This document shows, piece after piece, positions 51,385 to 59,152 of a stretch of DNA of 64,000 bases. The notes under the pieces were generated by a model that ran no database searches, was not told the DNA's origin, and saw nothing but the letters and a program-made list of their open reading frames with translations. The stretch's first letter is position 1. Each line of letters starts with the position of its first letter. The stretch is from Chloroflexota bacterium (GTDB lineage: Bacteria; Chloroflexota; Anaerolineae; Anaerolineales; UBA4823), in contig CP070764.1 in NCBI GenBank assembly GCA_020349245.1, positions 2,770,723 through 2,834,722 on the forward strand, in the 5' to 3' direction. The position numbers and the translations under genes were made by a program.

Positions 51385-52107
51385 GTGGAGATGGATAAAA
51401 AGACACACATTTTACTTGTAGATGACGAGGAAGCCATTACCAGCAACCTCGCCTCTTATCTAAACCGCTCCGGATTCGAAACTTCGGTCGCCGGGGATGG
51501 TGAGCAGGCATTAAGCCGGGTTCGTAGCAAACCTCCAGATTTAATCGTCCTAGATGTCCTGATGCCGAAAGTAGACGGGCGGGAAGTCTTGCGCCAGCTG
51601 CGCCAGGCTGGAGACTGGACACCGGTAATCCTGCTCACTCAGGTGGGGGAAGCCAGCGAACGTGCAATGGCCCTCGAAGAAGGGGCGGATGACTACCTGA
51701 ACAAGCCTTTTGACCCCCATGAGCTGATCGCGCGGATGCGGGCGGTACTGCGCCGCGCCAGGCCTGGACGACCTCCTCTCAGCGCTGCCTGGATCCTGGT
51801 AAGCGGAGAGCTGCGTTTCGACCGCCATTCCCGGCGGGCTTTCCTGCAGGATACAGAGCTCAACCTTACCCCGAAAGCGCTGCTGCTGCTCGAGTACCTG
51901 ATGACCCATCCGGATGAATTGCTCAACCGGGAACGTCTCCTCGATGTTGTCTGGGGCTGGGAATATCCCGTCGGTTCTCGAGCAGTCGATACCCGCATCG
52001 CCGAGCTGCGGCGTGAACTGGGCGATGATGCCGGGGACCCGGTTTACATCGAAACCGTTCCAAGCCTGGGATACAGATTCATTCAACCTGTGGAAGGCGC
52101 AAAATGA
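51385..52107 (+). CDS. OmpR-family response regulator
   Basis: ILLVDDEE, LIVLDVLMPKVDG, and winged helix PSLGYRF. The start is GTG 51385 or ATG 51391. Confidence 0.92.
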   Translation: MEMDKKTHILLVDDEEAITSNLASYLNRSGFETSVAGDGEQALSRVRSKPPDLIVLDVLMPKVDGREVLRQLRQAGDWTPVILLTQVGEASERAMALEEGADDYLNKPFDPHELIARMRAVLRRARPGRPPLSAAWILVSGELRFDRHSRRAFLQDTELNLTPKALLLLEYLMTHPDELLNRERLLDVVWGWEYPVGSRAVDTRIAELRRELGDDAGDPVYIETVPSLGYRFIQPVEGAK

Positions 52108-53015
52108 AGCGTATCTGGATCCTGCTGTTTCTGCCAATAGTCTTTGGCATGGTATTCAAAATTACCTTCGAACGCGGTTGGCTGGAGAACTCCATCCTTT
52201 ATCTGCGCATTGATCTGGGTACACTGGCTCTTCTATTTGGTTTTATGCTTTCCACCTTGCTGTTCATCATCTGGGGGATTTTCCTGTGGCAGGATCATCA
52301 ATTTAACCAGGAATTCCTCAATTTCCAGGCTAAAACCGCCGAAGAACACCGCCAGTTCCTGCAGCGCCTGGATCACGAGCTGAAAAATCCGCTCACCGCA
52401 ATACAGGCTGGTTTGGTGAATTTAAATGAGGATGCAAACGAACCTACTATTGAGAGCATCAAAGCACAGACGCAGCGTCTCAGCCGATTGGTCGCAGATT
52501 TGCGCAAACTGTCTGACCTGGAGACTCGCCCGATTGAGCGTTCTCCGGTCAATCTTTCCGAAGTTCTACTGGAATCTGTAGAAATAGTGGAGGATGAACC
52601 AGAAGCTGCAGAGCGTTCGATCAACTTGCGCTTACCTCAAGCACCCTGGCCGCTGCCAGATGTCCAAGGCGATGAGGATCTGCTCCTGCTTGCCATACTC
52701 AATTTGTTGGGCAACGCGGTCAAATTCTCTCAACCAGGAGCAACCGTTGAGGTACGGGCCTTTGAGGACGCAGATATGGTAATTATCGAAGTGGCGGACA
52801 CCGGACCAGGGATTCCGGAGAGTGAAGTACCATTTGTTTGGCAGGAGCTCTATCGCGGGCAGGGTGCACGGGGAGTTCCAGGCAGCGGTTTGGGCTTGGC
52901 TTTAGTGCGCGCCATCACCGAAAGACATGGGGGTCAGGTAACCATTCGCAGCCGGGTCAAGCAGGGCACCGTTGTCACGATGAAACTCCCGATCAAAGAA
53001 GTTACCAAACTGTAA
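52104..53015 (+). CDS. Sensor histidine kinase (2 TM, HisKA, HATPase_c)
   Basis: ATGA overlap with the regulator. H-box LDHELKNPLT, N-box LLGNAVKFS, G1 DTGPGI, G2 GSGLGLALV. Confidence 0.9.
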   Translation: MKRIWILLFLPIVFGMVFKITFERGWLENSILYLRIDLGTLALLFGFMLSTLLFIIWGIFLWQDHQFNQEFLNFQAKTAEEHRQFLQRLDHELKNPLTAIQAGLVNLNEDANEPTIESIKAQTQRLSRLVADLRKLSDLETRPIERSPVNLSEVLLESVEIVEDEPEAAERSINLRLPQAPWPLPDVQGDEDLLLLAILNLLGNAVKFSQPGATVEVRAFEDADMVIIEVADTGPGIPESEVPFVWQELYRGQGARGVPGSGLGLALVRAITERHGGQVTIRSRVKQGTVVTMKLPIKEVTKL

Positions 53016-53128: not shown

Positions 53129-55486
53129 ATGAGACTCAGAAAACCTGCATTTCCGATATACATCCTGTGTGTTTCCCCATTATTAATGTTACTGGCTGCC
53201 TGTGCAGCTCTTCCGGGAACATTGGAGGTAAGCCTTCAGCCTGAGTCCCAGACCAGTTCGCAAACATTATTCCTGGAAGAACTCTCGCCCGTGCTGGAGG
53301 CCATTATATTCGGCACCATGGACGAGCGCAAGGATTTAGTCAGCTATACAACTATCGCCTGCACAAACGCTGATGGCCTGGGGGGACCCCCCAAGTGCGA
53401 ACCAGGGCAGGATGAGGGAACTTTGCTAGAAGTTCTTCCCATATTAAGCGGGGAGGGAACGTTTGCAAGTCCCCAGGAAATCGATACTGCATTGGATTTC
53501 GTCGTGATGGGGTTATACAGTATCTACCGGGTCCCAGAGGATGCATTCAAGGCAGATTATTGGCCCCCTGCTGAGTATGGATTGGTGTTCACCCGGGAAA
53601 TGAACGCTGTTCCTTTTCCATTAACGGTATATGTCGATGATGGTCGCATTGTCAGCATCGTTCATCATTTCGGCACCGCACCAGAGGAATTGATCAAACA
53701 GCTTCCTCTGGAGGCGATCCTGCTACCCCCAGACAAAGCCCAAGTCTGGACGGCAGAACATACTCCCAAGGAACCTGATATTGTTGATCTTGATAACGGT
53801 ATTGTGACGGGTTCCGTATGTTTTCCAAGTGAAACTATCCCGGAGATGACATTGTATTTTCAAGAATTAACCCGCGGCGATCTATCGTACCAAAATCTTC
53901 CCCAGGGCCAATCTTCCTATTCAATTAATCTGGCACCGGGAACCTATATCGCTTTTGCTTACCCGGTCAATTCCGCAGGGGAAGTCACCGGCGGCAGTTA
54001 CTCTCAGGCTGTTCCCTGCGGTTTGGGGAATGATTGCACGGATCACACCCCAGTGGAATTCGAAGTCAAACCTGGCGCGGAAGTCAAGGAGGTCGATATT
54101 TGCGATTGGTATTCACCGGCAGACGTTCCCGCGAACCCGGAAGCCGCTCAAGGAACAGAGTCAGCCAAGCCAACCGGGAGTATCAGCGGTAGGATTTGCT
54201 ATCCAAGTGAATTCATTCCTGAAATGACGCTGTTCTTTGAAGACTTATCAACCCTTCAGATAACCGAGCTGCTCATTGCTGAAAATCAAACCGGCTACAC
54301 CATGCAGCTCTCCCCGGGAACTTATATCGCTTTTGCGTACTTGAACAGCGGAGCTCTTTTGGGTGGCTCATATTCGAGAGCAGTGCCCTGTGGATTGGGC
54401 ACAGATTGCAATGATCACTCGCTGATTGAATTCGAAGTTGTCCCTGGAAAGTCCTTGGATAATATCGACATCTGTGACTGGTACTCACAAGAAGATATAC
54501 CCCCAGATCCAAGGGCTGGGTTGTCTTCTCTTTCAGGGATGATCTACAGAACCAAGGAAGGCGTGTATTACCGGGTTGAATCGAATGGTGCTTCCCTTTA
54601 TATCTTCGATGGAGACAACCTGGCAGTTCCCTATTCAGGTCCGTATGGCGTCTATTCGAAAGAAAATGATCTCTACAAGCTAGACTTATTTACAGGTGAG
54701 GGCTACCAGCTGACAGACACCCCTGAGCTGCGAGAGACCAGCTTCCATTTTGAGGTTGGCTTACCAGAGCAATTATTGTTCAGTGCTTTACCTGCTGATG
54801 CGGAAATCTGGCCCGGTTATACCGGCGGGTTATACATAATGAATATGGATGGCACGGATCAGCGCACGATAGACAATGAAAACAACGCGGGCAATTTTGC
54901 AGCCTCCCCCGATGGCCAATTGATCGCCTACGGAGCTGGAGAAACCGCCTTTCTATACAACTGGGATACTGGTGTTGAGATTTTTAATCCCCGGGAATAC
55001 GGCATGGATAGTCCGAAAGGACAAAGTATAACCAGCCCATCCTGGTCATGGAATACAGAGCAGCTGGCTTGGGTGGTAAACGGTTTTTTCAGCGATGGTA
55101 ACACACAGGGGATCGGCATCTTCAATTTGACCGATAAGACCTTCCAGATACTTCATCCATACAAAGCACTGGGGATTGACGTAACCCCTCCCGGAGCGGT
55201 GTGGAGTCCAGATGGCGAGTGGCTGGCTTTTACAACCATCGACGAAGATCCCGCCCGTAGCGGCGTGTGGTTGATAAATCTGCTCAACCCCCAGCAGGAA
55301 TTTTTCATGGGAACATCGAGCAGCAACCCCGTGTTTGGACCCTGGAACAACGAGGGGAAAATCCTGACATATTTCAGGTTTGACGAATCACGAGGGGAGA
55401 GCAGGACCTGGATATTTGATTTAGCCAGCGGAGAACAGCAGTTGAGTCCTTTACCTGCAGAAGCGCAAGTGATCGCCTGGCGGTAA
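53129..55486 (+). CDS. Lipoprotein: unknown N-domain + 2 copies of a Cys-containing ~105-aa domain + TolB/PD40-like beta-propeller
   Basis: Lipobox LLAAC. Repeat copies lie at 53798-54112 and 54176-54484. The C-terminus has SPDG-type PD40 motifs (SPDGQLIAYG, SPDGEWLAFT). Confidence 0.75.
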   Translation: MRLRKPAFPIYILCVSPLLMLLAACAALPGTLEVSLQPESQTSSQTLFLEELSPVLEAIIFGTMDERKDLVSYTTIACTNADGLGGPPKCEPGQDEGTLLEVLPILSGEGTFASPQEIDTALDFVVMGLYSIYRVPEDAFKADYWPPAEYGLVFTREMNAVPFPLTVYVDDGRIVSIVHHFGTAPEELIKQLPLEAILLPPDKAQVWTAEHTPKEPDIVDLDNGIVTGSVCFPSETIPEMTLYFQELTRGDLSYQNLPQGQSSYSINLAPGTYIAFAYPVNSAGEVTGGSYSQAVPCGLGNDCTDHTPVEFEVKPGAEVKEVDICDWYSPADVPANPEAAQGTESAKPTGSISGRICYPSEFIPEMTLFFEDLSTLQITELLIAENQTGYTMQLSPGTYIAFAYLNSGALLGGSYSRAVPCGLGTDCNDHSLIEFEVVPGKSLDNIDICDWYSQEDIPPDPRAGLSSLSGMIYRTKEGVYYRVESNGASLYIFDGDNLAVPYSGPYGVYSKENDLYKLDLFTGEGYQLTDTPELRETSFHFEVGLPEQLLFSALPADAEIWPGYTGGLYIMNMDGTDQRTIDNENNAGNFAASPDGQLIAYGAGETAFLYNWDTGVEIFNPREYGMDSPKGQSITSPSWSWNTEQLAWVVNGFFSDGNTQGIGIFNLTDKTFQILHPYKALGIDVTPPGAVWSPDGEWLAFTTIDEDPARSGVWLINLLNPQQEFFMGTSSSNPVFGPWNNEGKILTYFRFDESRGESRTWIFDLASGEQQLSPLPAEAQVIAWR

Positions 55487-55536
55487 AACAGACCATCAGA
55501 ATATTTAATGATTATTTGACAAGGCATTCATACCCC

Positions 55537-57036
55537 ATGAAAAAAATCTGGTCTACTGCAATCATTTTATTCGGTGTATTGACCACAGCCTGTGCCCCTC
55601 TCCTGGGCACACTGGAAACTGAAAATGTTGCCAAGACCCAGGAGACGATCCACTCTCCCAGTGCAACCATCATCCAATCCAGCGAAACGGCTGTAGCGGT
55701 TGATGAAACAGGAACAATCTCCGGAAAAATATGCTTTTCAGGTGAAGTCATTCCCAGCATGATAGCCTATTTTATTAATCAGGATACAAAGGCAATAAAC
55801 CAACTGGCAATTACCGAAAACCAGACCAGCTATACCCTGCAAATTGAACCTGGAGATTATGTTGCTTTCGCTTACCGGGATGACTCACAGGGAGGCATGT
55901 ACTCGGAAGCAGTTGCTTGTGGATTGTCCGCAGAATGCACGGACCACTCCCTGCGGGTTTTCACGGTCCTTCCTGGGCAGAAAACCGAAGGCATAGACAT
56001 TTGCGACTGGTATGCCCAGGACCAGCTCCCCCCTCTCCCGGGGGAGACTTTCCAAAATGGTCCATACTTGGACATCGCTGGCTTGGTTTATAGCGACATC
56101 AACGCAGAAGAAACCTGGTGGATCGCCGCAAACGGCTTCCCGCAACGGTTATATCCTGAACGGGAGGCGAAACCATCACCGGGAGGCAGTCAGCTTCTTA
56201 TCGATCGTGAAGATGATATCTGGCTGGTGGATTTGATCAGCGGCGAAGAGATAAACCTGACCGCGGACAGCGATCGACTTGCAGGTGGTAGTCAGTGGTG
56301 GCCAGCCAATCCGGAGGTGATCGTTTTCAATTCAACGGACAGTGCGGATGGCTGGGGGATGAGTTTTGGTCAGGCCTCCATCATGCACCAGGACGGCAGC
56401 GATTTCCAGGTATTGGATGAATCTTCCTCATTATGGGCTCCCGCACCTTCACCAGATGGCAAGACTATTGCCTATGATACTGGCGTTGCAGCCTGGTTAT
56501 ATCACCTGGACACTGGTAGACAGCTTTTCGATGTCCGGGCATATGGATTGGATGCCCCTGAGGATTTTAAGATCGGCAGTCCCGCCTGGTCCCCGGATGG
56601 AAAACAGATAACCTGGTGGGTTGGCGGCTCTTTCCCTCCCAGTGGTGAATGGATAATCGCCCTTGCATTATTCGACTTGCAAACTCGAGAAGTCCAGTTC
56701 ATCCACCAATATCAACCCCTGGGAGGTTCGGGTGGCTGGAAGCCACCCGCCCAATGGAGTCCAGATGGACAATGGTTGGTCTTCACCACCCAAGGCCAGG
56801 GACGGGTACCTGAATTGATCGCCATGCGCGTCGATGGCAGCGAGGTGATTCCATTAGGCAGCGGAACTTTACCACTCTGGTCTCCGGACAGCCGCAAGCT
56901 GGTTTTTATCCGTTACGACGCCCAGGGCAGTTCTTATTTGGACAGCCAGATCCTGCTGGTTGAGCGGGATGATTGGCAGCCGGTTCCGCTCGAATTATCC
57001 CGCGGCAGCCTGCAAATACAATGGTCCGGTCAATAG
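55537..57036 (+). CDS. Lipoprotein: 1 copy of the Cys-containing domain + TolB/PD40-like beta-propeller
   Basis: Lipobox LTTAC. The domain copy lies at 55711-56013. PD40 motifs: SPDGKTIAYD, SPDGKQITWW, SPDGQWLVFT, SPDSRKLVFI. Confidence 0.75.
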   Translation: MKKIWSTAIILFGVLTTACAPLLGTLETENVAKTQETIHSPSATIIQSSETAVAVDETGTISGKICFSGEVIPSMIAYFINQDTKAINQLAITENQTSYTLQIEPGDYVAFAYRDDSQGGMYSEAVACGLSAECTDHSLRVFTVLPGQKTEGIDICDWYAQDQLPPLPGETFQNGPYLDIAGLVYSDINAEETWWIAANGFPQRLYPEREAKPSPGGSQLLIDREDDIWLVDLISGEEINLTADSDRLAGGSQWWPANPEVIVFNSTDSADGWGMSFGQASIMHQDGSDFQVLDESSSLWAPAPSPDGKTIAYDTGVAAWLYHLDTGRQLFDVRAYGLDAPEDFKIGSPAWSPDGKQITWWVGGSFPPSGEWIIALALFDLQTREVQFIHQYQPLGGSGGWKPPAQWSPDGQWLVFTTQGQGRVPELIAMRVDGSEVIPLGSGTLPLWSPDSRKLVFIRYDAQGSSYLDSQILLVERDDWQPVPLELSRGSLQIQWSGQ

Positions 57037-57148
57037 CAATGTTGCACAGCGCAAATAATCCACTGTTGCTCTCCAGCAGCTTTTTTGCCAAAGCAGGATT
57101 ATCGTGAAACGCTGAAAAAATGGAATTTTGAGTAGATGAGCGGTTATC

Positions 57149-57760
57149 ATGGATGAAAACGAGTTGATCCAATCTGCCAGAAAAGGAGACCTGGATTCCT
57201 TCAACCAGGTTATCCTAAAATACCAGGATTTGGTTTTCCAGCGTGCCTTCTGGATACTGGGTGAGGCAGAATCAGCCGATGACGCTGCCCAGGAGACATT
57301 TATCAAGGCATACCGCAACCTCTCACGATACCGCAACGGCTCTTTCCGCGCCTGGTTGCTGCGAATCGCAACCAATACCTGTTACGACGAGTTGCGCCGC
57401 AGAAAGCGCAGCCAAGATATCTCCTTTATCCAGCATGACGCGCACGGAGAGCAGATCGACCTTCTGGATTACCTTGCTGATCCGGAGTCATCCATTGAGC
57501 GGGCCATCGATGAGCTCGAACTGCAGGCAGATATCATCACCCACATCAAGGGGCTTTCATCCGAATTCAGGGAAACACTGATCCTGGTCGATATTCTCGA
57601 TTCGACTTACGAGGAGGCCGCGCAGGTACTTGGCGTTCCGATGGGGACAGTAAAGAGTCGGCTTGCCCGGGCACGCCTGCAGCTGAGAGCATTAATCGAC
57701 CCCCTTCAAGATGTGACACCACACAGCCATCTCCCAAGCTCGATCAGCATCGGCTACTAA
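57149..57760 (+). CDS. ECF-family RNA polymerase sigma-70 factor
   Basis: Region 2 (DDAAQETFIKAYRNL, WLLRIATNTCYDELRRR) and region 4 (YEEAAQVLGVPMGTVKSRLARAR). 203 aa. Confidence 0.9.
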   Translation: MDENELIQSARKGDLDSFNQVILKYQDLVFQRAFWILGEAESADDAAQETFIKAYRNLSRYRNGSFRAWLLRIATNTCYDELRRRKRSQDISFIQHDAHGEQIDLLDYLADPESSIERAIDELELQADIITHIKGLSSEFRETLILVDILDSTYEEAAQVLGVPMGTVKSRLARARLQLRALIDPLQDVTPHSHLPSSISIGY

Positions 57761-58059
57761 TAGCCAGCTACCCTTTGTATTCACAATTTTCCCGATAAAT
57801 CAGACGATGAACAAGCTGACAGAACTCTTCTGCTGGAAACTGTGCCGACGCTGTAAATCCTAAAATAACCACATTGGGGGTAGTTAATCGACAGGGGGGA
57901 AGCTGCCATTACTTGTACATCCTGATCCCAAATTCCTGTAACGAAATCATCACAACTCGTGACCTAGCTGCTACACCTTTGAAATCATCCCGCCACATTG
58001 GAAGTTTATTATCTCCATAGATGACAATGATCATTTGATCAGTAAATACGGAGGTAAAC

Positions 58060-59082
58060 ATGTTACGCAATAAAAGAAACGTCCTAATCGGTACAGCACT
58101 ATCTTTGATAATCGCCTTGATTTCACTCTTCAATATGACACCGGTGAATGTCAGCGCCAAAACAAGCCGTCTGTACGACAGCCCTACCAGGCCCAAGCTG
58201 GTGAATATCCAATCCTCGGTGAACAGCCGCACCGCTGCTACCGGATTGATCACTGGAAGACTGGCATATCCAAGCGAATATATTCCATCCTTAACTATCT
58301 TTGCCGTGCGGATTGACAATCAGCAGGGAACCTTCTACTCGACCCAAACTTCTACCAACCAAGATTCCTATGCTATCAGGGTCGACCCGGGTGTTTACCA
58401 GGTCATGGCTTACCATGGCGACTTTGCAGGAGGGTACACAAAATTTGCAACCTGCAACCTGGGTTCTGATTGCCGCGAGCACACACTTTTGCCTGTCGTC
58501 CTCGAAGCTGGAGACATCGTCAGTGATATCGACCTGCTGGATTGGTATGCACCCGTCGGGACTTTTCCACCTCGGCCAGATCATTCCTCCTTTTCCAGGA
58601 CGTCTCCGGTTTGCTCGACTTATCACACGGTGCGCTGGGGAGAAAGCCTGTTCCGGATTGGAATGCAATATAACCTGACCTGGAAACCGATAGCCGATGC
58701 AAACGAGATCTCAGATCCGGATTTGATCTATGCGGGACAGGTGCTCTGCATCCCGAAATCTACTTCCACCAGTTCCGTGAAAGACCAACCTTCCAGTATT
58801 CCGACCATTGAAATTCTCAGTGTTGTCAAGGATAAACGGGTCACCATCCAGACTGAAAACTATCCCGCCAATAAAACCTTTGTCGTGACGATGGGAAAAT
58901 ACGGCACAAAAGGCATCAATGGCTTCCAGGTCGCTGAAACGCAATCGGGTGGCGGCGGATCGTTTACCGCTACCTACTCAATCCCCAATGCCCTGCGCGG
59001 GGAAAGCCAGATCGCTATCCGGCTGCAAAGTTCCTCTGGTTATTACAGCTACAACTGGTTTTACAACAACAGCACCGAGTAA
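58060..59082 (+). CDS. Membrane-anchored/secreted protein: 1 copy of the Cys-containing domain + LysM + unknown C-terminal domain
   Basis: GGAGG RBS and an N-terminal TM/signal anchor. The domain copy lies at 58243-58548. LysM (YHTVRWGESLFRIGMQYNLTWKPIADANEISDPDLIYAGQVLCIP) lies at 58618-58755. Confidence 0.75.
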   Translation: MLRNKRNVLIGTALSLIIALISLFNMTPVNVSAKTSRLYDSPTRPKLVNIQSSVNSRTAATGLITGRLAYPSEYIPSLTIFAVRIDNQQGTFYSTQTSTNQDSYAIRVDPGVYQVMAYHGDFAGGYTKFATCNLGSDCREHTLLPVVLEAGDIVSDIDLLDWYAPVGTFPPRPDHSSFSRTSPVCSTYHTVRWGESLFRIGMQYNLTWKPIADANEISDPDLIYAGQVLCIPKSTSTSSVKDQPSSIPTIEILSVVKDKRVTIQTENYPANKTFVVTMGKYGTKGINGFQVAETQSGGGGSFTATYSIPNALRGESQIAIRLQSSSGYYSYNWFYNNSTE

Positions 59083-59116
59083 GCCAATATCACCGCAGAA
59101 AAATCCAACAATATTG

Positions 59117-59152
59117 GTCCGCTCCTTGATAACGGAGCGGACTTTCTTATTT
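59117..59152 (+). terminator. Rho-independent terminator
   Basis: gtccgctcc / ggagcggac form a 9-bp stem with an 8-nt loop, followed by tttcttattt. Confidence 0.65.

Follow-up and report, generated by a model that had tools for sequence, protein, structure and literature searches.

The lipoprotein LpqB is encoded in the actinobacterial mtrA-mtrB-lpqB operon, in which the genes for a response regulator (RR) and a histidine kinase (HK) are followed by that of a lipoprotein with a TolB-like β-propeller. The same gene order, RR, HK and a lipoprotein with a TolB-like β-propeller, is present in a 64,000-nucleotide stretch of DNA from a Chloroflexota bacterium of the order Anaerolineales (assembly GCA_020349245.1, contig CP070764.1, positions 2,770,723 to 2,834,722 of the forward strand), the whole of which is referred to here as the window. 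The subject of this study is a domain of about 103 residues that occurs four times in the products of three neighboring open reading frames (ORFs) of this locus, ORF1, ORF2 and ORF3. It has in common with the carboxypeptidase-regulatory-like family CarboxypepD_reg (PF13620) a G-x-I-x-G first strand, an L-P-P-G-x-Y-x-V strand, an all-β sandwich (predicted for the new domain), and its use in exported multidomain proteins. We consider it probable that this domain is an autonomous extracytoplasmic unit of ~103 residues, or of ~115 residues if its conserved Pro-rich tail is included, that is stapled by disulfides and has a binding role of its own. The genes and the domain copies are located in the window as follows.

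53129..55486, + strand: ORF1, a 785-residue lipoprotein (lipobox LLAAC) with an NTF2-like domain, two domain copies and a weak PD40/TolB-like propeller
53798..54112, + strand: domain copy 1, four-Cys type, in ORF1
54176..54484, + strand: domain copy 2, four-Cys type, in ORF1; the sequence modelled with AlphaFold2
55537..57036, + strand: ORF2, a 499-residue lipoprotein (lipobox LTTAC) with one domain copy followed by a PD40 propeller
55711..56013, + strand: domain copy 3, four-Cys type, in ORF2
58060..59082, + strand: ORF3, a 340-residue exported protein (signal peptide or anchor) in which one domain copy is followed by LysM and, at the C-terminus, by a domain without assignment
58243..58548, + strand: domain copy 4, two-Cys type (C8 replaced by A, C100 by L; the C-x5-C loop is kept), in ORF3

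A preliminary description of this DNA had pointed out four copies of ~105 amino acids in these three proteins, and all four are indeed present and in frame. Their alignment is poor in gaps and comprises 107 columns, 24 of which are invariant, with identities to copy 1 of between 34 and 53%. Pairwise BLASTP comparisons, which are independent of any profile built from the copies, connect even the most distant pair (copies 1 and 4; E 7e-22), and copies 2 and 3 match each other at E 1e-40. When the whole 4.5-Mb genome was searched with the profile, exactly these four copies were recovered. The shared consensus that had been proposed does not extend to all four: the ORF3 copy, which reads RLAYPSE and IDLLDWY at the respective positions, lacks the first and the last cysteine and keeps only the C-x5-C loop. 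Likewise, the Pro-rich linker said to follow the terminal D-W-Y motif starts with a conserved tail that has the form A-P-x-G-x-F-P-x-x-P in many relatives and is often the C-terminus of the protein.

The impression that the domain cannot be assigned to a named family was borne out by searches of Pfam-A, NCBIfam, the PDB (by sequence and with Foldseek) and BFVD, the resources to which the term uncatalogued refers here, none of which returned a significant match. Pfam-A and NCBIfam scans of the whole proteins and of the isolated copies recognized only PD40, LysM and sigma factor domains, and nothing that covers the repeat. When 111 diverse copies were scanned singly against Pfam, there were only sub-threshold matches to fn3_3 (52 copies), CarboxypepD_reg (46 copies), Mfa2 and SdrD_B, all of them located at approximately residues 3 to 57. 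The best match of a profile search against PDB sequences, the collagen-binding domain of a collagenase, extends over ~40 residues and is not significant (E 0.013). Precomputed labels from a newer Pfam release place no family on homologues that consist of the domain alone, and mark only propeller families and LysM in ORF1- and ORF3-type proteins. Two of these labels, PF26549 and PF26550, were considered as candidates and rejected, as they do not track the domain: the protein P0042, with 28% of the domain, carries PF26549, P0030, with 91% of it, does not, and both labels are absent from ORF3-type and two-domain proteins. A search of the full-text literature found no account of the domain.

The family is large. 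A profile built from the four copies, run against 1.84 billion cluster representatives (50% identity), matched 1,731 clusters at E≤1e-3, of which 888 reach E≤1e-10. From GTDB species representatives, 76 loci were recovered, nearly all of them in metagenome-assembled genomes of Anaerolineae/Anaerolineales, including Anaerolinea, Longilinea and Brevefilum; a few derive from bacteria of the Candidate Phyla Radiation (CPR; Roizmanbacteria, Microgenomates, Patescibacteria), and a few from bins with unlikely labels. The latter include two bins labelled Pseudomonadales and Gammaproteobacteria (L041, L045) and two unclassified ones (L040, L054), in which the domain is found in transmembrane-anchored single-domain proteins. 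These proteins nearly match the CPR versions (L031, L047, L059) in architecture, and the taxonomic labels of the four bins are probably wrong. Of 301 Chloroflexota genomes that were sampled evenly, 18 contain the domain, including the source genome, and 12 of the 17 others belong to the same order. Since the domain-bearing genomes of this sample mostly have one or two copies, the presence of four copies in three adjacent genes is unusual.

AlphaFold2, supplied with the alignment of 111 sequences, predicts an all-β structure for copy 2 with high confidence (predicted local distance difference test, pLDDT, 96.7; predicted template modelling score, pTM, 0.87). The model has strands at residues 2-7, 17-23, 29-34, 40-44, 48-56, 63-65 and 86-88. 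It also shows short bridges close to the C-terminus, and residues 66-85 form a segment without regular structure. No Foldseek match of this model in the PDB or BFVD falls below E 1e-3; the best are generic immunoglobulin, transthyretin or fn3 sandwiches with template modelling (TM) scores of 0.4-0.58, and those from the PDB are only generic sandwiches as well (E 0.011-0.3, TM 0.4-0.55), among them a transthyretin (9h7g_B, E 0.097). The preliminary description had likened the start of the domain to a carboxypeptidase-regulatory-like sandwich. This likeness is real: when the domain was aligned by hhalign with an 84-column reference profile made from 23 bona fide CarboxypepD_reg domains of the source genome and its relatives, residues 2-59 of 103 were matched to positions 1-60 with a probability of 94.4% and an E-value of 9.4e-8. 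Judged by this profile comparison, the N-terminal half of the domain is homologous to CarboxypepD_reg, and the C-terminal ~45 residues (60-103) are specific to the family.

It is well supported that the domain derives from a carboxypeptidase-regulatory-like (transthyretin-like) β-sandwich whose C-terminal part has been rebuilt. According to the model and to conservation, a loop of ~20 residues with the pattern Y-S-x-A-V-x-C-G-L-x-x-[DE]-C-T-D-H is inserted before the penultimate strand, and the final strand ends with the D-W-Y motif. Some relatives possess copies of ~92 residues from which the entire Cys loop is missing, and these fit the notion that the loop is an insertion into a simpler sandwich. 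Such Cys-free, loop-less copies of ~92 residues are found, for instance, at L020:6355-6630 and as the second copy of P0034, in each case behind a four-Cys first copy, and this combination of a four-Cys first and a Cys-free second copy is present in nine proteins. The loop-less second copies may represent the ancestral form of the domain, or a degenerate partner copy.

The distribution of the cysteines follows a simple rule. In the alignment of 111 copies, C72 and C78 are present in 110. The pair of C8 and C100 is complete in 32 copies and missing from 78, and no copy has just one of the two. Among 378 unique copies, 172 have all four cysteines, 190 only the inner pair, three only the outer pair and 12 none at all, and a single copy, with C78 alone, breaks the rule that C8 and C100, and likewise C72 and C78, are present or absent together; this rule is thus obeyed by 377 of the 378. 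Since each pair comes and goes without regard to the other and is almost never split, two disulfides, C8-C100 and C72-C78, are strongly indicated by co-occurrence. The near-universal Cys72-Cys78 bond would close the loop, and the second bond, Cys8-Cys100, would tie the first strand to the last in about half of all copies, including three of the four studied here. The source genome encodes VKOR (E 2e-28, above the cut-off) and has six matches above cut-off to the DsbA-like family Thioredoxin_4, so that disulfides in exported proteins are plausible; together with the strictly pairwise cysteines, these genes speak for the disulfide dependence that had been raised as a possibility for the domain. 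A further observation concerns a Thioredoxin_4 match (E 6e-18) outside the window, at G000:C1:2694684-2695181, which lies in a frame of 478 codons with one in-frame TGA. The frame could encode a selenoprotein or be a pseudogene, or the TGA could result from a sequencing error.

In the proteins of this locus, the domain copies are accompanied by the following segments.

53201..53794, + strand: N-terminal α+β domain of ORF1 (residues 25-222, ~200 residues), NTF2-like by its predicted fold (AlphaFold2, Foldseek)
54600..55483, + strand (approximate bounds): C-terminal PD40/TolB-like β-propeller of ORF1 (PD40 E 3e-5; TolB 26 bits against a cut-off of 343)
56083..57033, + strand (approximate bounds): PD40 β-propeller of ORF2 (PD40 E 9e-16 over four stretches; DPPIV_N E 4e-7)
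58624..58755, + strand: LysM peptidoglycan-binding domain of ORF3 (residues 189-232; PF01476, E 7e-13)
58810-59079, + strand: C-terminal ~90 residues of ORF3 (~251-340), with no Pfam or NCBIfam match

Lipoboxes and signal peptides occur throughout the family, in agreement with the envelope location suggested for these proteins at the outset. Family proteins mostly contain one or two copies of the domain, and three in a few cases. PD40 propellers are the most common partner domains, and LysM, PA14 with SH3_3, β-helix, fn3, Big_7 and N_BRCA1_IG domains are found as well. In 96 of 190 sampled proteins, the domain copies leave fewer than 170 residues for the rest of the chain, which is mostly made up of a lipobox and a low-complexity linker rich in Pro, Thr and Ala. 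The CPR versions consist of a membrane anchor and one copy that ends with D-W-Y-A-P-x-G-x-F-P-x-x-P. Between orthologues, the domain is 62-68% identical, the propeller and LysM domains 67-71%, and the linkers 23-44%. Y41, Y50, Y66, D80, H81, D101, W102 and Y103 are kept in between 80% (Y41; 89 of 111 copies) and 100% (Y50) of the aligned sequences.

The domain thus follows a lipobox or membrane anchor and a long linker with much Pro, Thr and Ala, and it either stands by itself or precedes partner domains. Taken together, these features suggest a rigid surface module, stabilized by oxidation. It would bind, through its conserved Tyr, Trp, Asp and His residues, what is probably an envelope polymer or a partner protein, and would hold the domains attached to it in place in the wall of these filaments, which are of the monoderm type. 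An autonomous binding role appears to us more likely than that of an inert spacer, because lipoproteins that consist of the domain alone exist and because the Tyr, Trp, Asp and His residues are so strongly conserved; it is from architecture and conservation that ligand binding is deduced. Several points weigh against this proposal. A folded inert spacer would outdo disordered linkers in conservation just as well. The gene neighborhoods reveal no consistent functional partner (119 flanking genes, tallied by Pfam family), and the adjacency of a two-component system (TCS), described below, is limited to about three lineages. Furthermore, a named family that covers the domain may exist in InterPro, CDD, ECOD or the AlphaFold DB.

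The alternative that the domain is merely structural, a rigid stalk stiffened by disulfides that sets the distance between anchor and working domain and has no ligand of its own, draws on the facts that no other folded unit usually lies between the domain and the preceding lipobox and linker, that it occurs in tandem, that relatives in its fold class (CarboxypepD_reg, SdrD_B, Big, fn3) are often stalks, and that no binding partner emerges from the gene neighborhoods. We nevertheless regard this explanation as unlikely. In half of the sampled proteins the domain stands alone, so that a spacer would have nothing to keep apart, the polar and aromatic residues listed above are retained among the 111 copies to an extent that goes beyond the usual needs of fold maintenance, and the domain is as well conserved between orthologues as the propeller and LysM domains to which it is attached.

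The genes for the domain proteins are embedded in the window among the following elements.

51385..52107, + strand: gene for an RR of the OmpR/PhoB family, the first gene of a probable operon
52104..53015, + strand: gene for an HK with a HisKA and HATPase core, matched by PhoR-like models from residue ~80 onward
57063..57088, + strand: terminator-like hairpin plus T-run after ORF2
57149..57760, + strand: gene for an extracytoplasmic function (ECF) sigma factor with Sigma70_r2 and r4 domains
59116..59143, + strand: strong terminator-like hairpin after ORF3, with a 10-bp stem (seven GC pairs) followed by a T-rich tail

The start of the HK gene overlaps the stop of the RR gene by 4 nucleotides, and no terminator-like site was found from the RR-HK pair to the end of ORF2; ORF1 and ORF2 thus appear to be co-transcribed with the two-component genes. 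The RR gave only sub-threshold matches to the PhoB, RpaB, OmpR and MtrA models of NCBIfam. Read from its sequence, the N-terminus of the HK consists of two transmembrane helices connected by an outside loop of ~20 amino acids, and no HAMP, PAS or other sensor domain is recognizable in the protein. It looks like a kinase of the intramembrane-sensing type that would need an accessory partner. Orthologous RR-HK pairs are located directly upstream of domain-protein genes in L005, L007, L008, L009, L028 and L029, and such a pair lies downstream of the domain gene in L012. In L030 and L037, RR-HK pairs of other kinds come before the genes of lipoproteins with a single domain.

Co-transcription with a TCS that has no sensor would fit a regulated remodelling of the envelope or an accessory role in sensing, but a sensing role of the domain is speculation. 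As a neighbor of the domain genes, the TCS is better conserved than the sigma factor. In its most explicit form, this idea holds that the domain lipoproteins are accessory sensors of the upstream HK, by analogy with LpqB and MtrAB, and that the domain contacts the kinase or its signal. It would account for the order RR-HK-lipoprotein on one strand with no terminator-like site before the end of ORF2, for the recurrence of this order in the loci just listed, and for the small outside portion of the HK, and it agrees with a faint match of ORF1 to the LpqB propeller family Gmad1 (E 0.062). About 65 of the 76 loci, however, have no adjacent TCS, and the presence of an RR within 12 kb, in 19 of the 76, does not differ much from the genomic background, which is 0.17 per interval of that size. 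The occurrence of an RR or HK anywhere within 12 kb was rejected as an indicator, since it is not enriched over background (62 RR and 32 HK per 4.5 Mb), and direct upstream adjacency alone stands out. The adjacent cases, moreover, come from about three lineages and so represent few independent events, co-transcription is equally expected if the lipoproteins are targets of the regulator, and the Gmad1 match is not significant and is not joined by GerMN domains. Given the background-level frequency and the few lineages, we retain the link to the TCS as a minority hypothesis, and we judge an accessory-sensor function to be quite improbable. A bolder version, in which the domain would be the ligand- or partner-binding head of membrane-anchored proteins throughout Anaerolineales and CPR, and in some lineages the missing sensor of the HK, LpqB-like, disulfide-dependent and possibly redox-responsive, is in our view a very improbable proposition.

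The proposed link between the domain and the ECF sigma factor did not hold up. The sigma gene does lie inside the cluster in this genome, but phmmer detected a homologue within 6 kb in just one of the 76 loci, and neither of the syntenic loci L005 and L008 has one; an association with ECF sigma factors was therefore rejected as a feature of the family. In L005, the ORF2 and ORF3 orthologues are separated by ~200 bp with no sigma gene between them. In the window, the terminator-like hairpin separates ORF2 from the sigma gene, and no anti-sigma ORF was recognized in the 300-nucleotide gap between the sigma gene and ORF3, which contains only ORFs of ≤48 amino acids. These data point to a lineage-specific insertion of the sigma gene here, or to its loss in relatives. 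Among the 119 flanking genes, mfd and uvrB are the most frequent, together with histidine kinases, and no transporter, peptidase or glycan-enzyme partner stands out. In one subgroup of Anaerolineae, a two-copy family lipoprotein is encoded between mfd (TRCF) and uvrB (L038, L046, L050, L063, L068, L070, L072, L074 and others). This neighborhood is conserved, but as a matter of synteny only, and is functionally uninformative.

That the C-x5-C-x-D-H loop might instead be a site for Zn, Cu or Fe, formed by Cys72, Cys78, His81 and possibly Asp80 in a metal-binding, chaperone or redox module, is very doubtful. In its favor, C72, C78, D80 and H81 each have a conservation of 94-99% among the 111 copies, FetP and CzcE turn up low in the fold and Pfam lists as weak resemblances, and many hosts are presumably anaerobes, in which exported disulfides are less certain, but His81 is retained in 10 of the 12 copies of the 378-copy set that lack the loop cysteines, which argues against a joint Cys2-His site under co-evolution, the outer Cys pair acts as a classic optional disulfide, VKOR and DsbA-like proteins are encoded in the genome, no conserved metal transporter or resistance genes lie nearby, and the FetP and CzcE resemblances are not significant.

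Two further segments of the locus deserve mention. The N-terminal domain of ORF1, a protein for which 27 orthologues of ~785 residues were found, gave no match in Pfam and NCBIfam scans; AlphaFold2 predicts its structure with a pLDDT of 80.4, and the top Foldseek matches in the PDB are all NTF2-like/cystatin-like cones, albeit weak ones (best E 2.6e-3). It contains two invariant cysteines in a C-x11-C arrangement (ACTNADGLGGPPKC), and in P0041 a diverged version of this domain is fused to one copy of the new domain. For the C-terminal segment of ORF3, conservation between orthologues is 67%, and the genome contains four homologues of it, itself included.

The domain family is new to the libraries searched, but it is a derivative of a known fold; it represents no new kind of biology and will not surprise the specialist, although it merits cataloguing and simple biochemistry. 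Because Pfam-A and NCBIfam do not detect the family, thousands of surface proteins of Anaerolineales and CPR bacteria are labelled 'hypothetical' or, misleadingly, 'TolB family', and a family model made from the domain alignment of this analysis would mend their annotation. The domain also marks a set of lipoproteins in the poorly understood envelope of filamentous Chloroflexota, and it provides a clean case, open to testing, in which exported proteins of this group would carry paired disulfides. The significance of the finding should not be overstated: it adds one more β-sandwich module whose function is deduced, and it opens no long-standing question.

When the locus is compared with described systems, it does not appear, from its sequences, to belong to the mtrA-mtrB-lpqB system whose gene order it shares. 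The RR and HK score below the cut-offs of the MtrA and MtrB models, the HK has no extracellular domain, the Gmad1 match of ORF1 reaches 13.6 bits against a cut-off of 20.5 with no GerMN match beside it, and LpqB has no counterpart of the new domain. PD40 repeats are present in ORF1 and ORF2, whose homologues are called 'TolB family protein' in some sources, but both proteins stay far below the cut-off of 343 bits of the TolB equivalog model TIGR02800 (26.2 bits for ORF1, 47.8 bits for ORF2), the N-terminal domain of TolB is replaced here by the new β-sandwich, and in the 50-62 kb stretch of the window Tol-Pal genes were not found next to them. The most common weak Pfam match of the domain itself, fn3_3 (PF14686, domain II of polysaccharide lyase family 4; best E 1.2e-8 among its 52 matches), is limited to the central strands (profile positions ~14-54 of 75), lacks any lyase context, and of the four source copies lists only that of ORF3, at 16.4 bits against a cut-off of 24.4.

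The closest relative is CarboxypepD_reg, yet its cut-off of 32.3 bits is not reached: none of the four copies is listed at E≤1, and divergent relatives scanned singly score at best 17-18 bits (best E among the 111 copies 9.6e-6). Canonical CarboxypepD_reg members of the same genomes are Cys-free, have ~80 residues, and do not align with the C-terminal 45 residues of the new domain. Compared with their compact seven-strand form of ~80 residues, the domain described here has 103 residues, an irregular segment at residues 66-85 and an extra terminal strand, and it is set apart by a loop of ~20 residues that is predicted to be closed by a disulfide, by an invariant D-H and, at its end, by the D-W-Y strand and the Pro-rich tail.

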